A DNA stretch of 64,000 nucleotides, from assembly GCA_009784815.1 (NCBI GenBank), contig WQXN01000001.1, positions 65,857 to 129,856 of the forward strand, in the 5' to 3' direction. The position numbers and the translations under genes were made by a program. Of the stretch, positions 228 to 51,182 are shown one piece after another. Source of the stretch: Alphaproteobacteria bacterium (GTDB lineage: Bacteria; Pseudomonadota; Alphaproteobacteria; Rs-D84). The notes under the pieces were generated by a model, which was given only the letters and a program-made list of their open reading frames with translations, was not told the DNA's origin and ran no database searches. The stretch's first letter is position 1. Each line of letters begins with the position of its first letter.

Positions 228-257
228 TTGACAAAATGCGCAGGGGGGGGGTAGACT
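228..257 (+). promoter_or_regulatory. Sigma70-like promoter with a G9 tract filling the 3' half of the spacer
   Basis: TTGACA 228-233, 18-bp spacer ending in G9 (243-251), TAGACT 252-257. AAGGA RBS at 269-273, ATG at 280. Confidence 0.55.
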
Positions 258-12284: not shown

Positions 12285-13292
12285 TTATATATCTATCCGA
12301 TCCAATATACGGTTCATTTGGCCGCGGATATTGCCGTCTTGTCTTTTTAACTGGCTGCGGAGAGTTTTATGTATATCGGTGATTTTTAAGTCGTTTATCC
12401 CGGCGCGATCCAATACCCTTTGCCAGGCGCGCTTGGGGTCCACAAGATGCCCCGCTCCCGCTCCTGTGCTTGGAAATACGAATTTAGATTTCTGCGGGAG
12501 GGATTCAAGCAGCACTACCGCTTGGTCCGCAAGGGGTTTTCCGTTCCAAGTGTTAAGATTCAGGTCCAAATCGTCCCAGCGCATTGCTAAAACTTTGCTT
12601 TTGTTCGCAAAGCCGTAGGCCAGCATTTTAAGGGCCGCCCTCATGTTAGGGTTTTTTTCCATATCTATCGCGCGGCCGATCAGCGAAAATTCCCCCGCGC
12701 TGATATGGCGCGATCCTTTTCGTTCGAAAAATTTTTCAAGATCTTTTGTAGGATTGTCCGATGCGTATCCTTCTTCAATCGCGGCGTTGAATATAGCCGA
12801 CATGGTTTCCCGCATACGGTTAGCGGTGGACTGGCCGTTTTCCTGGGCGATTTTTGAATGCAGTAGCGACAACTGCGCCGGCGTTATGTCGGAAAGCTTC
12901 AGGGGCAGGACTTCGGTCCAAAGACGCCCTATGTTGCGTTCCAGTTTTTTCTTGGATGCCGCTTCACGCCGGACTCTGTGTTTCAAAAACAATTCCGTCA
13001 TTTTGCCCAAAGTCATTTTGCCGGTCCTGATCGGCAGCGGAGTTTTCATTTTAATTATCGCTGTACCGGCCAGCTCGCGCGCGTCGTCTATGTCTATGTC
13101 GGGATAGTTGCCCAGTATCTTGCGGGTGTCTTTTCCGCGAGCTCGTTTTCTGACGAAAAATGTTTTCGCTCCGTTTGCCGTAATATAAAGCTGAAGGTCG
13201 GGATGATACGAATCACGCACCACTTCAAAGCCGGTTTTCGGCGGTATCAGGCTGTCCAGGACGGCGGAAGTGAAGGGAAAGCGAAGCGACAT
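12285..13292 (-). CDS. Degenerate P4-type (Arm/DUF4102 N-terminus) phage integrase, probably catalytically dead
   Basis: The N-terminus ...FEVVRDSYHPDLQLYITANGAKTFFVRKR... is the typical integrase arm-binding domain. The ORF is only 335 aa. The LAMRWDDLDL and IHKTLR relics are present. I cannot find the C-terminal His/Trp...Tyr segment, and the first catalytic Arg position reads N/K. Confidence 0.6.
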   Translation of the reverse strand: MSLRFPFTSAVLDSLIPPKTGFEVVRDSYHPDLQLYITANGAKTFFVRKRARGKDTRKILGNYPDIDIDDARELAGTAIIKMKTPLPIRTGKMTLGKMTELFLKHRVRREAASKKKLERNIGRLWTEVLPLKLSDITPAQLSLLHSKIAQENGQSTANRMRETMSAIFNAAIEEGYASDNPTKDLEKFFERKGSRHISAGEFSLIGRAIDMEKNPNMRAALKMLAYGFANKSKVLAMRWDDLDLNLNTWNGKPLADQAVVLLESLPQKSKFVFPSTGAGAGHLVDPKRAWQRVLDRAGINDLKITDIHKTLRSQLKRQDGNIRGQMNRILDRIDI

Positions 13293-13372
13293 GGTAAAAT
13301 CTCTCTGTTTTGACCGGGTTCGTATTGCCGATTATATAGGAGTATCTGCAATTGGTCAAGAGGAAATCATGC

Positions 13373-13403
13373 TTGACATTTGGCCGCGGGGGGGGGGTAG
13401 CAT
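13373..13403 (+). promoter_or_regulatory. Sigma70-like promoter with a G10 tract in the spacer (pyrE-pyrF)
   Basis: TTGACA 13373-13378, 19-bp spacer ending in G10 (13388-13397), TAGCAT 13398-13403. pyrE ATG at 13455. Confidence 0.5.
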
Positions 13404-13454
13404 TCGGATCAGAGGGCGAGAGAGGCAACGAAACTATAACCTAAAGGAAATGTT

Positions 13455-14171
13455 ATGTCTGACTTTACGCCCGATCAAGTGACCGGCATGAAGGCCGAGC
13501 TTGTACAAGGTTTTATGGATAAAAATATCCTGAGAATTGCAGCCGCCGAAGAAGAGCTTGCGCCGGAAAACGGCCCCGGCTGGTTCAGATTAAAAAATAA
13601 ATCCCTCTCGCCTTTGTTTTGGAGCATTCAGACCCTTCATTCTTATCCGAGATTATTCGAGCTTATGATTATTCTTATGTCCGAAAAAATCAACGAGGCC
13701 GGAATCCGATACGACCATATCATGGGCGTGCCCGAAGGCGGAAAATGCCTTGCGGCGGCGCTGGGTTTCTATCGCGACGAAAGCATTATTTATATGCGTA
13801 AAGAACCGAAAGATCACGGCCAGGGAGGCTTGTTGATCGGAGATTACAAGGAAGGCGACAAGGTGCTTGCGGTTGAAGACGTTATAACAAGCGGCGGTTC
13901 CGTGGATCGCGACGCGTCCGACAAGCTTATACAGGGTACCAGCGGCCAGCTTGAAGTGACAAGCGCCATAGTCGGGCTTGATCGCCAGCAGAAGGGCGCG
14001 GGCGAAGATCCGACTCAGAACGGCGCGGCCTACCTTGCTTCCAAGGGTATCGAATTGCTTTCCGTCTTCACTCAGGCCGAAGCGATAAAATACTGGGAGC
14101 CGAAAACCGATCATCATAAAGCCATGAAGCCGATCATCGAGGCTTATTTGGCGAAAACCATCGTATCGTAA
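13455..14171 (+). CDS. pyrE: Orotate phosphoribosyltransferase-like (type I PRTase)
   Basis: PRPP-binding motif KVLAVEDVITSGGS, upstream MGVPEGGKCLAAAL, and KEPKDHGQGG flexible loop. Adjacent to pyrF. Confidence 0.75.
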   Translation: MSDFTPDQVTGMKAELVQGFMDKNILRIAAAEEELAPENGPGWFRLKNKSLSPLFWSIQTLHSYPRLFELMIILMSEKINEAGIRYDHIMGVPEGGKCLAAALGFYRDESIIYMRKEPKDHGQGGLLIGDYKEGDKVLAVEDVITSGGSVDRDASDKLIQGTSGQLEVTSAIVGLDRQQKGAGEDPTQNGAAYLASKGIELLSVFTQAEAIKYWEPKTDHHKAMKPIIEAYLAKTIVS

Positions 14172-14183
14172 AAGGAGTTTATA

Positions 14184-15023
14184 ATGGCTAATGATAAGAT
14201 AATAGTTGCTTTGGATTATCCGAACGAAGGCGCCGCGCTTGAACTTGTGCGCAAATGCGACGGCCGTCCGGTAAAATTCAAAATAGGCAAAGAGCTGTTC
14301 ACCAACGCGGGGCCCGACATCGTGTCCAAGATCATAGATCTTGGCGGATATGTCTTTCTTGACTTGAAATACAACGATATATCGAACACTGTTAAGGGTG
14401 CTGCGAAAGCCGCCGCGAATCTTGGTGTGGACCTGTTCAATATGCATGCAAGCGCCGGATTTGAAAAAATGAAGGCGGCGAAAGAAGGCGTGACGGAAGT
14501 CGCCTCCAAGGAGCCGTTCAGAGAACCGAGAGTTATAGCCGTCACTTGTCTTACCGATATGGACGAGCATGATCTGAAATTGATCGGAGTAAACGAGACT
14601 CCGGCCGAATACGCCGCGCGCCTTGCGAACTTGGCCAAGCATGCCGGAATGGACGGCGTGGTCTGCTCTCCGAAAGAGCTGCCGATCATGCGTTATATTC
14701 TGGGTGACGACGCTACTTTGGTGACTCCGGGCATACGTCCCAGATGGTCCGAGGCCAACGAACAGAAACGCATTACCACTCCGGCGGACGCGATTGCTAA
14801 CGGAGCCACCATGCTGGTCATAGGCCGCCCGATTACGGGGCACGAGGATCCGGCCAAGGCGATAGATCTTATCGCGGACGAAATTTTGGCCGCCATGCCG
14901 CGATATAATTCGAACGTTTTGAATCAGGACGACAGGACAAAGCTGGATGACTATCTAAAGCAGCGCAACATGGAGCTTGCGGCTTATATGAAGCTTCGAG
15001 GCCGCCAGCAGAGCTGTTCGTAA
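14184..15023 (+). CDS. pyrF: Orotidine-5'-phosphate decarboxylase, with a roughly 40-aa C-terminal extension
   Basis: IIVALDYP..., FKIGKELF, FLDLKYNDISNTV (DxKxxD), LVIGRPIT. Confidence 0.9.
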   Translation: MANDKIIVALDYPNEGAALELVRKCDGRPVKFKIGKELFTNAGPDIVSKIIDLGGYVFLDLKYNDISNTVKGAAKAAANLGVDLFNMHASAGFEKMKAAKEGVTEVASKEPFREPRVIAVTCLTDMDEHDLKLIGVNETPAEYAARLANLAKHAGMDGVVCSPKELPIMRYILGDDATLVTPGIRPRWSEANEQKRITTPADAIANGATMLVIGRPITGHEDPAKAIDLIADEILAAMPRYNSNVLNQDDRTKLDDYLKQRNMELAAYMKLRGRQQSCS

Positions 15024-15030
15024 ATGTAAA

Positions 15031-15060
15031 AAACAAAGGGCCTTCCGGCCCTTTGTTTTT
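15031..15060. terminator. Bidirectional intrinsic terminator between convergent pyrF and the radical-SAM gene
   Basis: AAACAAAGGGCC-TTCC-GGCCCTTTGTTT perfect 12-bp stem, flanked by an A-run and a T-run. Confidence 0.8.
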
Positions 15061-15982
15061 ATCGCATCTTTTCTGATATTTTTTGTGCGGCAAGGTCAAG
15101 AAGTTCGTCGCGAAGCTGGCCTGCCGGGATGAACCGGCCTTTCTTATTCCTATAATTTACCGCTATGCTGTTGTCCATGCCTAAGGTGAGGGCAAGCTTG
15201 CCGTTGCTTGTGAAGTTGTATCCAAGAAAGCGCGACTCGCCTTTTTCTTCTATGTGATCCAGTTCGTCCTTCCAGTCCAAGTCGTGCTTGTGCGGCCAAT
15301 CCAGTTTTTTGGCGCGTCCTATGTTGATCAAATGTCCGCTCCATCTGTCCAAGCGCGTCCGGCCCACATATTCCGAAATTTTCAGTTTCTTTTCGTAAGG
15401 CAGGCCTGTGGCAAGAATCCGATCCATATTTTCGTTAAACCAGGCTGTTTGAATCATAACTTCCGAGCTTATGTTTCTAAGCTTCGGATTTGTGTAAAGC
15501 TCGGTCATGATCTGAATATTCTCGGAAAAATTGTCGTGCCATTGATCCATCGAAAGATGAAGCTTGAAAAGATCGGATGATTTGGTTGCCAGCAGCTCTA
15601 GGTCAGCTATGAAGCGGTCGTAATATTTTGCGCCGGCTTTGGCTATCCAGCCGTTGGTTTTAAGGATCATTAAAGAATTGCGCTTGATCCCGGCAAGGCA
15701 TATATCACTTAGGTAATTAGGGTCTATGTCGTAGGCAAGTGTGGCTTCGCCGCCGCTTATCAGAAACCCTCCGCATTTGAAGCGGGGGTTATGGCGCAGC
15801 TCGTCCATGTAGAATATTACGTCTTCTTTGGGTATAAGTTTGTTTTTTACGCCTGGCCCCGAATTCTCGCCGCAGTGCGCGCATGCAAGATTGCACGACC
15901 GGGTTATTGAAAACTTTGTCGTGTAGTCGACAGTCGCGCTTGCCAGTAGTTCGCGGATTTCCGAATATGATTTGTCTGGCAT
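15059..15982 (-). CDS. Radical SAM protein, function unknown (308 aa)
   Basis: CxxxCxxC cluster motif SCNLACAHCGEN and GGE motif FLISGGEATL. Start placed at the ATG at 15982 (MPDKSY...) behind an AGGAGGG RBS. The track start at 16054 is the TTG of a TTGACA -35 box and reads through the C9 tract. Confidence 0.8.
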   Translation of the reverse strand: MPDKSYSEIRELLASATVDYTTKFSITRSCNLACAHCGENSGPGVKNKLIPKEDVIFYMDELRHNPRFKCGGFLISGGEATLAYDIDPNYLSDICLAGIKRNSLMILKTNGWIAKAGAKYYDRFIADLELLATKSSDLFKLHLSMDQWHDNFSENIQIMTELYTNPKLRNISSEVMIQTAWFNENMDRILATGLPYEKKLKISEYVGRTRLDRWSGHLINIGRAKKLDWPHKHDLDWKDELDHIEEKGESRFLGYNFTSNGKLALTLGMDNSIAVNYRNKKGRFIPAGQLRDELLDLAAQKISEKMR

Positions 15983-16010: not shown

Positions 16011-16038
16011 ATTTTAAGGGGGGGGGTAAATTTGTCAA
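16011..16038 (-). promoter_or_regulatory. Sigma70-like promoter with a C9 tract (coding-strand sense) in the spacer
   Basis: Minus strand reads TTGACA (16038-16033) AATTTA C9 (16026-16018) TTAAAAT (16017-11). The spacer is 15-16 bp. A second TTGACA lies at 16054-16049. Confidence 0.5.
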
Positions 16039-21146: not shown

Positions 21147-21713
21147 ATGGGCGATTGGGGTTCCGCTGTTTATGTGACCAGTCAGATTTTGCAAGGCTTG
21201 GCGTATCTGCTTCTGATGTTCACCTTTTTTATAATAAGCAGAAAATTGCAACTTGCGGCCGTTATTATCGCAAGCGTGTTTATGGGCGCGGGGTTTTTAT
21301 TGCTAGGGGGGGGCATGGGCGCCGCTGTGCTTGGCGTCGCTGTATGCCGCGATGTTACAAGTTATTATCTTAACGGCGCAAGGAAACCAGAAGACAGAAG
21401 CAAGATTACGAAATCGGATTGGTGGCTTTTGGCTTTATGGGCGACTTTGGCGTCCGCTCTCTCGCTGTTCGCTTATCACGGGTTGCCAAGCCTGTTCGCC
21501 TATTTCGGCATGATGTCTTTTACCGTCGCCATATGGCAGAAAAATCAGGCGATATATCGTATTCTTGGCGTTCTTGCCGCGGTCTTTTGGATTATCTATA
21601 ACGTGGTTCTGGATTCTTTTGTGGGCACGGTGTTGGAGGGCGTATTCCTGTTATCCGCCGTCATGGGCTTGATATTGTATTTGAAAAATTACAGTTCTTT
21701 CAGAAAAGTATAA
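21147..21713 (+). CDS. Integral membrane protein (weak resemblance to the YgjV family)
   Basis: About six hydrophobic helices. AAGGA RBS before the ATG at 21147. Contains an in-frame G8 tract at 21306-21313. Confidence 0.6.
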   Translation: MGDWGSAVYVTSQILQGLAYLLLMFTFFIISRKLQLAAVIIASVFMGAGFLLLGGGMGAAVLGVAVCRDVTSYYLNGARKPEDRSKITKSDWWLLALWATLASALSLFAYHGLPSLFAYFGMMSFTVAIWQKNQAIYRILGVLAAVFWIIYNVVLDSFVGTVLEGVFLLSAVMGLILYLKNYSSFRKV

Positions 21714-49364: not shown

Positions 49365-51084
49365 TTATCTTTTTGAAAACTTTGCCCAAATATTCTTAAA
49401 ATGGCCGTTGGATTTTTGCAATTCGGAAAAAGTTCCGCGTTGCACTATTTTTCCTTTGTTGAACACGTATATTTCGTCGAAAGAATCCAGAAGATTCAGT
49501 TTATGAACCGAGAAGATCAAAATCTTGTCTTTAAATTTTTTTGATATTTGATCCATAATCGTCCGTTCGGTCAAACCATCGACCGAGCTGGTGCATTCGT
49601 CGAACAACATTATCCCGCTGTCTTTTCCGGCAAGCAATCCGCGTGCAAGCGCAAGGCGCTGCTTTTCTCCGCCGGATAAATTCACTCCCTTTTCGAACAG
49701 GTGGGTGGCAAGCCCTTTAGGCAGACGTTCCATGACCGAATCGAATTTGGAAATTTTTACCGCTTCTTCTACGTCTTTATGGGAATATTTTGCGCCTACC
49801 GATATGTTATATTCGATCGTGTTTTCGAAAAATTCCGGGTCTTGCGGTATATAGATCGAATGGCCGTCCAAGTGCGATATATGTTTCGCGCCGACGTTGG
49901 GTCTTAGGATTCCGCGTATAAGCATCATAAAAGTGGATTTACCCGAGCCGCTTGCGCCCACCAATGCGATTTTCTTGCCGCGTTTGGCGGTGAATTCAAA
50001 ATCGTTTATTTCAACTGCGGGAGATTTCGCGTCACCGTATCTGAAGCTTAGGCTCCTGATGTTAAACGAGTTCGGCGCGCCGCGGGATTTTTTGGATGAT
50101 ATGTCCTGGTGCGGTTCCTTGAATATAACGTCCGCCTGTCTTATTGTTATTCCATTTTCAACCATTTCGTCGTATGTTTCGGCGAAATCGAAAAAATTGT
50201 CGGCGGCGCGGCTTAGATAAAGTTTAAGCGCCACCAGCACTCCGATATTTATGACGTTTCCGGACCGGTACGAGTCGTACGCGTGCCAAAGGATCATTGC
50301 ATACCCCAGCACTATTATGCTGATCACCATAAACGACCACTTGCGCTGGTTTACCATAGTGCTTTTATTAAAATCTGGGTATATAGCTTCGTTGGTCGCT
50401 TCTATATTCGCTTGGGTTTTTAGTCCAAGCCTTAGGCTTAGGATCGTTCTCATGTTTGATACGTAGTCTTGGAACACGCTGCTAAGCTTTTGGCTTTTCA
50501 CATGAAGGTTCGCCCACAGGACTGAAAGTTTGCCGTTCATGAAATGCACGAACGCCACCAGGATCATAAGCCATATCGAATAGACCGCGGCCATTTTCCA
50601 GTTCAGTAAATATAAATACACTATTGCGAAAGTCAGACTAAATACTATGTTTATGTATGCGTCGATTTTCGATATGAATGTCGATATGGCGCCTTTGGCG
50701 GCGTTTATTATATGGATCGATTTTCCCGAATGGTTGCTGTTGTGCCATGATTGGCCCAGCTTTCGCATATGCTTGTAAGCGCTTAGCGTAAAGCGTTTTT
50801 TAACGCGGAATAATTCGCGATCCCTTGCTATTCGGCTTGCCTGGCGCACAAGAACATGCCCCGTATGCGTCGCGCACATGGCAAGCATGAATATTACGAA
50901 AGTCTTAAATTGAAGGTGTAGGGGGGGGGGTGGAAAGATCGAGGCTGGATATGGCGCGGCCAAAAAGCATTGGCCCGGCAAGCGCAAGCCCCGTCGAAAT
51001 CATAAAGCCCGCCGTAAACAAAGCCACGCGCCATTTATTTGCGTATTTGAAAGATGTTTTGGCAAGGATTAAAAGATTTATCAT
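49365..51084 (-). pseudogene. ABC exporter (fused TMD-NBD) interrupted by a frameshift at a C10 tract; phase-variable, pseudogene or homopolymer sequencing error
   Basis: The NBD is intact (GASGSGKST, LSGGEKQRLALAR, IMLFDECTSSVD). TM1 (MINLLILAKTSFKYANKWRVALFTAGFMISTGLALAGPMLFGRAISSLDLS) is read from the ATG at 51084 in a different frame and ends at a TAA just after the tract at 50921-50930. C9 would join the two frames. Confidence 0.75.
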
Positions 51085-51133: not shown

Positions 51134-51162
51134 TTTATAGGATCTAATAATTAGCTTGACAA
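51134..51162 (-). promoter_or_regulatory. Candidate promoter for the ABC exporter, with its -35 overlapping the divergent promoter's -35
   Basis: Minus strand reads TTGTCA (51162-57), 17-bp spacer, TATAAA (51139-34). TTGTCAA is the reverse complement of the plus-strand TTGACAA. Confidence 0.4.
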
Positions 51163-51182
51163 AATACGGGGGGGGGTAGAAT
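51156..51182 (+). promoter_or_regulatory. Sigma70-like promoter with a G9 tract in the spacer
   Basis: TTGACA 51156-61, 15-bp spacer ending in G9 (51168-76), TAGAAT 51177-82. AGGAGG RBS, ATG at 51225. Confidence 0.55.

Follow-up and report, generated by a model that had tools for sequence, protein, structure and literature searches.

The window analysed here, a stretch of 64,000 nucleotides, belongs to an uncultured termite-gut alphaproteobacterium whose nearest genomes are MAGs named "Rickettsiales bacterium" and, after these, Candidatus Enterousia. The genome bin comprises 827,946 bp (0.83 Mb) in 12 contigs and is 87% complete. Two pyrimidine genes lie on the plus strand of the window: a pyrE-like gene for a phosphoribosyltransferase of 238 aa (13455–14171) and pyrF, which codes for a type 1 OMP decarboxylase of 279 aa (14184–15023). 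PyrF scores 258.8 bits against NF001273 (cut-off, 193); the PyrE-like protein scores 85.6 bits against TIGR00336, below the curated cut-off of 106.8 for membership in that family. Its identity as an OPRTase is supported by context: pyrF is its neighbor here, and the two genes are fused in a sister species (G001). Convergent with pyrF is a radical-SAM gene (15059–15982, minus strand; 307 aa in the ENA call), which was not found at the pyr locus of G001 or of a second sister species, G002.

The other flank of the pair is occupied by an integrase-like gene (12285–13292, minus strand; 335 aa), which had earlier been described as decayed. Indeed, its product matches arm- and core-binding domains only (Arm-DNA-bind_3 and Phage_int_M); the catalytic domain PF00589 was not detected even at E = 10, neither the first catalytic arginine motif nor the tyrosine region is present, and the protein ends about 20 residues past an H-x-x-x-R-like motif. 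Yet the gene is conserved in the genus: its product and the G002 protein share 66.5% identity. It also has its own promoter, close to the consensus (TTGACC-17 bp-TATAAT; 13331–13359, minus strand; 11 of 12 matches), which is divergent and carries no G tract.

The pyr genes were found together with the integrase-like gene in all three of the species examined. In G002, the order is integrase-like gene, intergenic region, pyr genes, parE, and in G001 the pyr genes likewise lie between the integrase-like gene and parE. The content of the locus differs: G002 has a type 2 pyrF followed by pyrE (C46; L092 769–2335), G001 has a fused pyrF-pyrE (C6; L091 1–1335), and the present genome has pyrE, a type 1 pyrF and the convergent radical-SAM gene. 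A type 1 pyrF as such is absent from 29 of the 30 relatives, which use another pyrF type. For this reason we discarded as misleading the impression that pyrF is limited to 2 of 31 genomes: the sister species carry another type of the gene at the same locus. A search of genome contigs for relatives of this pyrF by peptide patterns found nothing. The identity of PyrE is 43% with its G002 counterpart and 31% with the corresponding half of the fused PyrF-PyrE protein in G001, as against 82–84% between species for ParE. By these comparisons, the pyr site behaves as a replacement hot spot, rebuilt in each species.

The earlier note had raised the possibility that this pyrE-pyrF pair is accessory. 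In terms of function, the idea did not hold. Both genes occur in a single copy in the 87%-complete bin, where a search for the second copy envisaged in that note found none; pyrB-like and pyrD-like genes are present elsewhere in the genome; and the sister species carry both pyr genes at the same locus. Thus, the pair is functionally housekeeping. As for an island, G001 and G002 carry pyrF and pyrE at the site where an accessory cargo should be missing from relatives, the adjoining recombinase is not an intact tyrosine recombinase, and composition is not deviant (GC 0.494–0.495 over window 12–16 kb versus 0.49–0.50 for the genome). In terms of history, the idea retains some merit: the genes have been rebuilt or replaced in each species, an integrase-like gene adjoins them, and their promoter is of a class that is enriched before species-specific genes.

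Read base by base, the promoter stretch ahead of pyrE is cTTGACAtttggccgcGGGGGGGGGGTAGCATtcgg. On the plus strand it consists of a −35 box, TTGACA (13373–13378); a non-G spacer half of 9 nt, TTTGGCCGC (13379–13387); a tract of ten G (13388–13397); and a −10 box, TAGCAT (13398–13403), that lies flush against the tract. The spacer is accordingly 19 bp long in this assembly. As in spacer switches of the porA/tp0126 type, the two boxes of a sigma-70-type promoter here flank a homopolymer that is longer than about 8 nt. The earlier note had given all of these elements correctly to the base. It had also placed the ATG 52 nt downstream; the pyrE-like ATG is at 13455 on the plus strand, and we count 51 nt between it and the −10 box. 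Within this interval is a purine-rich, conserved leader block, CAGAGGGCGAGAGAGGCAACGAAACTATAAC (13410–13440), which aligns with the corresponding G002 leader block, CAGAGGGCGGAGAGGGGACGAACTTATAAC. We take this block to resemble the core of a PyrR box. It is common to G002, where the first gene is pyrF rather than pyrE, and no Rfam family was matched within 13200–13600.

The orthologous promoter in G002 reads TTGACT-aatcgaaatgtaGGGGC-TATTCT. Its spacer is 17 bp long and has only GGGGC ahead of the −10 box. The earlier note had proposed a comparison of the orthologous intergenic region in related genomes; in G002, the boxes and the leader are kept, and the tract is just GGGG. That both boxes and the leader have been retained across species is the strongest indication we have of transcription from the pyrE promoter, and on the strength of it we regard the promoter as probably genuine. 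Furthermore, the GGGG and the 17-bp spacer of G002 indicate that the pyrE G-run is a recent expansion of a four-G seed. A search of JGI metagenomes for the pyrE promoter with any tract length returned no hits.

The pyrE tract is far from alone. There are 60 runs of 8–10 G or C in the genome, and the distributions of run length are bimodal for both bases: 16, 2, 7, 23 and 4 runs of 6, 7, 8, 9 and 10 G, respectively, and 13, 3, 3, 21 and 2 runs of the same lengths of C. By contrast, A and T runs fall off smoothly with length. Exactly nine nucleotides is the length of 44 of the 60 tracts in this genome and of 15 of 19 in the ENA assembly. The dinucleotide TA directly follows 54 of the 60 runs, TTGACA is found at −15 to −10 relative to the tract start in most of them, and 33 of the 60 have a TTGACA-type −35 box. 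The consensus of the class is an A/T-rich stretch followed by TTGACAAAA-N5-G9-TAGAAT, that is, gcTTGACAAAA-N5-G9-TAGAAT; the pyrE site has the class layout of TTGACA, 9 nt, run and TA, plus one additional G. The pattern GGGGGGGGTANNNT (G8+TAnnnT) was observed four times in the window versus 0.02 expected, and 36 times in the genome versus 2 for the same pattern reversed, which served as a control. Within spacers, the run has a marked polarity: of 31 cases, 28 have G on the non-template strand and 3 have C (p = 5e-6). A −35 box is missing from 27 G-TA tracts, and among the 22 runs located within long ORFs, 15 still precede TA.

Other members of the class are found in the window. One has the standard layout (TTGACA + 9 nt + G9 + TAGACT; 228–257, plus strand), and one has a shorter register with a 15-bp spacer (TTGACA + 6 nt + G9 + TAGAAT; 51153–51182, plus strand). 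The radical-SAM gene has a promoter, TTGACA-16 bp-TAAAAT, with C9 in its spacer (16011–16038, minus strand); the tract, which reads as G9 on the plus strand (16018–16026), is also G9 in the ENA assembly. This promoter is one of only three of opposite polarity. Two runs in the window lie within long ORFs and are not followed by TA: a G8 at 21306–21313 and a G10 at 50921–50930 (C1:116777). Interrupted runs, GGGGGAGGG and GGGGGAGG, occur in promoters that are otherwise of the class type, and these may be "locked" former tracts.

Two other accounts of the class were considered and set aside. A mobile promoter cassette was rejected on the grounds that conservation does not extend beyond about 33 bp. 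The notion that G9-TAA or G9-TAG marks frameshift sites linked to stop codons produced only one convincing case, outside the window at C2:162345–162353. There, G9 directly precedes the TAA stop of a 352-codon frame; with one G fewer, the frame would stay open for another 346 codons and enter the glycosyltransferase-like ORF that follows. We regard this tract as a possible fusion/split switch.

The census bears directly on why a homopolymer should stand before pyrimidine genes. The earlier note found it odd that they had been singled out, but they were not: the same design precedes at least 32 other genes. A phase switch specific to an accessory, island-borne pyrEF pair would draw on the degenerate integrase next door and on the differences in pyr genes between the sister species. 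That proposal is largely refuted by the genome-wide census, and the sole copies of pyrE and pyrF, the pyrB-like and pyrD-like genes, the presence of the locus with its integrase-like gene in all three species and the unremarkable GC content also speak against it; we consider it highly improbable. Unusual as the promoter class is, the pyrE tract is an ordinary example of it. The earlier note had further suggested that the tract could be a general promoter feature rather than a switch. Its generality is borne out by the 60 tracts, the 33 canonical promoters and an order-wide spread; the words "rather than a switch" go further than the data do.

What kinds of genes stand behind these promoters? 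We took the sister genome G001 whole (749,938 bp) as a reference for homologues. Any G001 homologue was present for 8 of the 33 first genes behind tract promoters, compared with 521 of 819 ORFs (Fisher p = 1e-5). Under a strict criterion, which demanded 40% identity across half of the length, 2 of 33 first genes and 447 of 819 ORFs qualified (p = 8e-9). Tract promoters are thus strongly enriched before species-specific genes, which they mostly precede, a cargo that resembles that of contingency loci. No Pfam family could be assigned to 22 of 30 first genes. The remainder are enzymes: PurL, a PurN-like formyltransferase, DapB, an RpiB-like protein, a GT2 glycosyltransferase, a MoaA-like radical-SAM protein and an SRPBCC protein. 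With PurL, DapB and others behind tracts, the class includes biosynthetic genes besides pyrE-pyrF. In addition, the replacement hot spot at the pyr site agrees with the overall association of tract promoters with genes that have changed recently. The apparent oddity of the locus is thereby removed: the pyrimidine genes sit behind the type of promoter that recently rebuilt loci have in this lineage.

Tract length was compared between assemblies of the same strain, namely the present one, the ENA assembly ERZ27264051 and the Logan contigs of run SRR10512954, over five regions totaling 96,933 bp. Only four differences were found, and each was a change of one nucleotide in the length of a G/C tract; apart from a divergent contig end of 265 nt in L144, there were no substitutions. 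The pyrE tract (C1:79244) is G10 in this genome and G9 in ENA/Logan; the tract at C1:116777 is G10 here and G9 in both ENA and Logan; that at C9:28280 is C10 here and C9 in ENA/Logan; and that at C5:29894 is G8 here and G9 in ENA/Logan. Hence, tract length is the only feature that distinguishes assemblies of this strain in the regions compared, and all four tracts that differ have a length of 9 in ENA/Logan, which are concordant with each other wherever both are visible. About one in five of the compared G/C tracts differ (4 of 19), and none of the five compared A/T runs of at least 8 nt does. Because the ENA assembly has G9 at pyrE, a G10 tract with a 19-bp spacer is not a stable property of the locus; the alternative, G9 with an 18-bp spacer, is the class norm.

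The length of the pyrE tract therefore varies (G10 vs. G9) among otherwise identical genomes, a pattern that Illumina or assembly noise could also explain. The four differences fit hypermutable tracts in a mixed population, and short-read homopolymer noise could give the same picture; we infer that the differences arise in cells rather than in sequencing. Should the tracts themselves be sequencing or assembly artefacts, such as the poly-G produced by two-color chemistry, a disagreement in length between assemblies is what one would see. However, the pyrE tract occupies the same place in three independent assemblies, the tracts are strand-specific relative to genes and framed by −35 and −10 boxes, and they are present in many independent MAGs. 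The chance that they are artefacts is next to negligible.

The class extends beyond this species. A census of G8+TAnnnT sites in 201 genomes of the order showed that most have 0–2 sites, three other species of the genus have 4–7, and a few genomes are far richer: 12 in G028, 24 in G051 and 62 in G047, which belongs to another family. Of the sites in G047, 51 are of the form TTGAC...G8+TA and fall into both of the registers seen in the present genome, the first being TTGACAAAAY-N5-G9 with an 18-bp spacer and the second TTGACAAA-N3-G9 with a 15-bp spacer. The short register, in which 6 nt separate TTGACA and G9, is discrete; it was seen in G028 (as the sole register), G047, G051 and the window (51153–51182), and it is common in other lineages. 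A sharp mode at exactly nine is shared by G000 (the present genome), G047, G051 and G028, which represent different families. The counts in fragmented MAGs are lower bounds, as G-runs break short-read assemblies. Contig boundaries at or adjoining G-tracts were noted at position 1 of L145 (Logan SRR10512954_340408) and at the end of contig C3 of G001. That genome (JAIRUP01) also harbors dozens of palindromic, REP/MITE-like copies of about 45 nt (e.g., C3:3281–3331 and C4:18255–18301); they are bounded by CCCCCC and GGGGGG, and in some the end run has grown to G8–G14.

A dedicated sigma factor for the tract promoters was considered and rejected. The sigma factors of the tract-rich genomes are RpoD and an RpoH-like factor alone, the same set as in the tract-poor genomes. 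With no extra sigma factor available, RpoD, the housekeeping factor, must read the tract promoters.

A third account treats the tracts as a neutral by-product of mutational bias. G-runs would expand from GGG-TA seeds, for example under weak mismatch repair, and persist at orphan genes that tolerate changes in expression, with no adaptive role at pyrEF. The patchy, lineage-specific tract counts, the ancestral GGGG seed at the pyrE promoter and the enrichment of tracts at non-conserved genes are all agreeable to this account. So is the failure to detect MutS_V in this 87%-complete bin, given that 28 of 31 relatives have it. But the bin lacks the entire syntenic region that surrounds mutS in G001 (C7, 20.7–38.5 kb), and the break falls at the end of contig C12; thus, the absence is probably an assembly gap. 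As the tract-rich genome G028 has MutS, we rejected the loss of MutS as the cause of tract expansion. Moreover, neutral expansion should yield a broad spectrum of lengths and frequent interruptions, instead of the observed gap at 7 and ceiling at 10, and it does not account for a non-G spacer half held at 9 or 6 nt. A neutral origin is therefore improbable.

How would such tracts affect transcription? In this genome, ordinary TTGAC[AT]-N-TAnnnT sites without a G-run number 27, 48, 21 and 18 at spacers of 16, 17, 18 and 19 bp, respectively, on a background of about 9; the peak is at 17 bp. Sites with a G-run have a different distribution: 17 at 18 bp, 6 at 19 bp, 4 at 15 bp and 1 at 17 bp. In tract promoters, G9 gives an 18-bp spacer and G10 a 19-bp spacer. 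With tract promoters at 18 bp and ordinary ones at 17 bp, the class appears poised one step above the local optimum.

We favor the explanation that the tract is a slippage-prone spacer element that dims and brightens transcription of pyrEF, in the manner of porA and tp0126, and we assign it a probability of roughly 55%. The tract would be part of a working RpoD-type promoter of pyrE-pyrF. This promoter is one copy of a class that is genome- and order-wide, in which about nine G on the non-template strand fill the half of the spacer adjoining the −10 box. The run grew in this lineage out of the ancestral GGGG. Slipped-strand mispairing would alter its length between G9 and G10, the spacer would thereby be 18 or 19 bp long, which exceeds the 17-bp mode by one or two steps, and the likely effect would be a heritable, reversible and stepwise change in promoter strength, that is, a "dimmer." Such a dimmer would act on any gene behind the promoter; pyrEF would not be singled out. 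That tract length changes promoter output is our inference; the evidence for it is indirect, namely the 17-bp peak of ordinary promoters as opposed to the 18 or 19 bp of tract promoters.

Several observations sit poorly with a dimmer. Tract lengths are tightly concentrated at nine (44 of 60 tracts; 15 of 19 in ENA), whereas classical contingency sets show a greater mixture. The abutment on the −10 box, the polarity, the 15-bp register and the 27 tracts that have no −35 box would not be needed for a pure length switch, and together they suggest that the run has a role in sequence or structure. Finally, MutL is present in this genome, and mismatch repair may damp slippage.

Given these features that the switch model leaves unexplained, we retain as the main rival the view that the run is a fixed promoter element. 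On this account, G9+TA is a constitutive RpoD module in the order, nine G is the optimum, and one-step variants are deleterious noise. The element may act like an extended −10 through G at −13 to −15, or it may be stiff, A-like DNA that lets an 18-bp spacer behave as one of 17 bp. The TA after 54 of 60 runs, which holds for 15 of 22 inside long ORFs and for the 27 without TTGACA, accords well with such an element, as do the polarity of 28 G to 3 C, the sharp mode at nine in several families, the two discrete registers of 18 and 15 bp with G9 in each, and the shift of all four differing tracts to nine in the other assemblies. Set against this, the G002 pyrE promoter manages with GGGG and a 17-bp spacer, and the run is thus not required. 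Interrupted runs (GGGGGAGGG) are found in otherwise identical promoters, most genomes of the order have a similar RpoD and 0–2 sites, and a pure homopolymer is a costly code for a fixed element. Neither does the canonical extended −10 fit, for it needs a T at −15; the pyrE promoter has GGG at −15 to −13 and shares with the motif only the G at −14. Our estimate for the fixed element is that it is a serious but unlikely alternative. The dimmer and the fixed element are not mutually exclusive.

A broader proposal is that G9+TA is more than a switch and represents a distinct promoter element of this uncultured gut alphaproteobacterial order (RF32/Enterousia relatives). RpoD would read it as a portable "G-tract −10" module, placed in registers of 18 and 15 bp from TTGACA or used with no −35 box, and would serve as the standard expression route for newly acquired genes in reduced genomes, with slippage as a side effect. 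We offer this speculatively, as an idea that is rather doubtful at present. At least 33 stereotyped poly-G promoters (60 tracts) in 0.83 Mb would rank among the densest slippage-prone regulatory sets known; this class is found in a non-pathogenic termite-gut symbiont and is tied to species-specific genes. Its −10 abutment, polarity and two registers are unexplained by the textbook model of spacer length, and it offers a clean test of the G-run as a promoter element in itself.

These features may be compared with those of known systems. In E. coli-type RpoD promoters with an extended −10 (TGn), bases −13 to −15 contribute via sigma region 3.0. The tract promoters resemble these in that a G at −14 stays present whatever the tract length; they differ in having no T at −15 and in a run of 9 nt that far exceeds a 3-nt motif. 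In Buchnera aphidicola, another reduced-genome symbiont, expression from the ibpA promoter reportedly changes when the homopolymer in its spacer differs by a single base. As at pyrE, that homopolymer is in a spacer before a non-surface, housekeeping-type gene of a reduced genome. Unlike the present tracts, the ibpA homopolymer consists of A and belongs to a sigma-32 heat-shock promoter at a single locus, with no such promoter class.

The closest parallel for the dimmer is porA of Neisseria meningitidis (with the poly-C tracts of opc and fetA), in which a G homopolymer of about 9–11 nt lies within the spacer of a sigma-70 promoter (PMC7864442). There, slipped-strand mispairing alters the spacer's length, which sets the "volume" of transcription (PMC7864442). 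For both porA and tp0126 of Treponema pallidum, whose poly-G also sits between the −35 and −10 boxes, output is maximal at the optimum spacer of 17 bp and falls stepwise otherwise (PMC7864442). In contrast to porA, the tract described here abuts the −10 box and nearly always has G on the non-template strand, and it recurs in at least 33 promoters in 0.83 Mb, mostly before orphan and metabolic genes instead of surface antigens. For the pyrE class, switching and an effect on expression are proposed. T. pallidum is similar in having a reduced genome with many promoter poly-G tracts (tp0126, tprE/G/J and tprL). The treponemal tprL tract varies between 7 and 11 G, and most molecules carry 9 (PMC7864442), which is also the mode in the present genome. 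The treponemal tracts, however, vary in position relative to the boxes and precede genes for outer-membrane proteins, while those described here have one stereotyped layout that is common to families of an alphaproteobacterial order.
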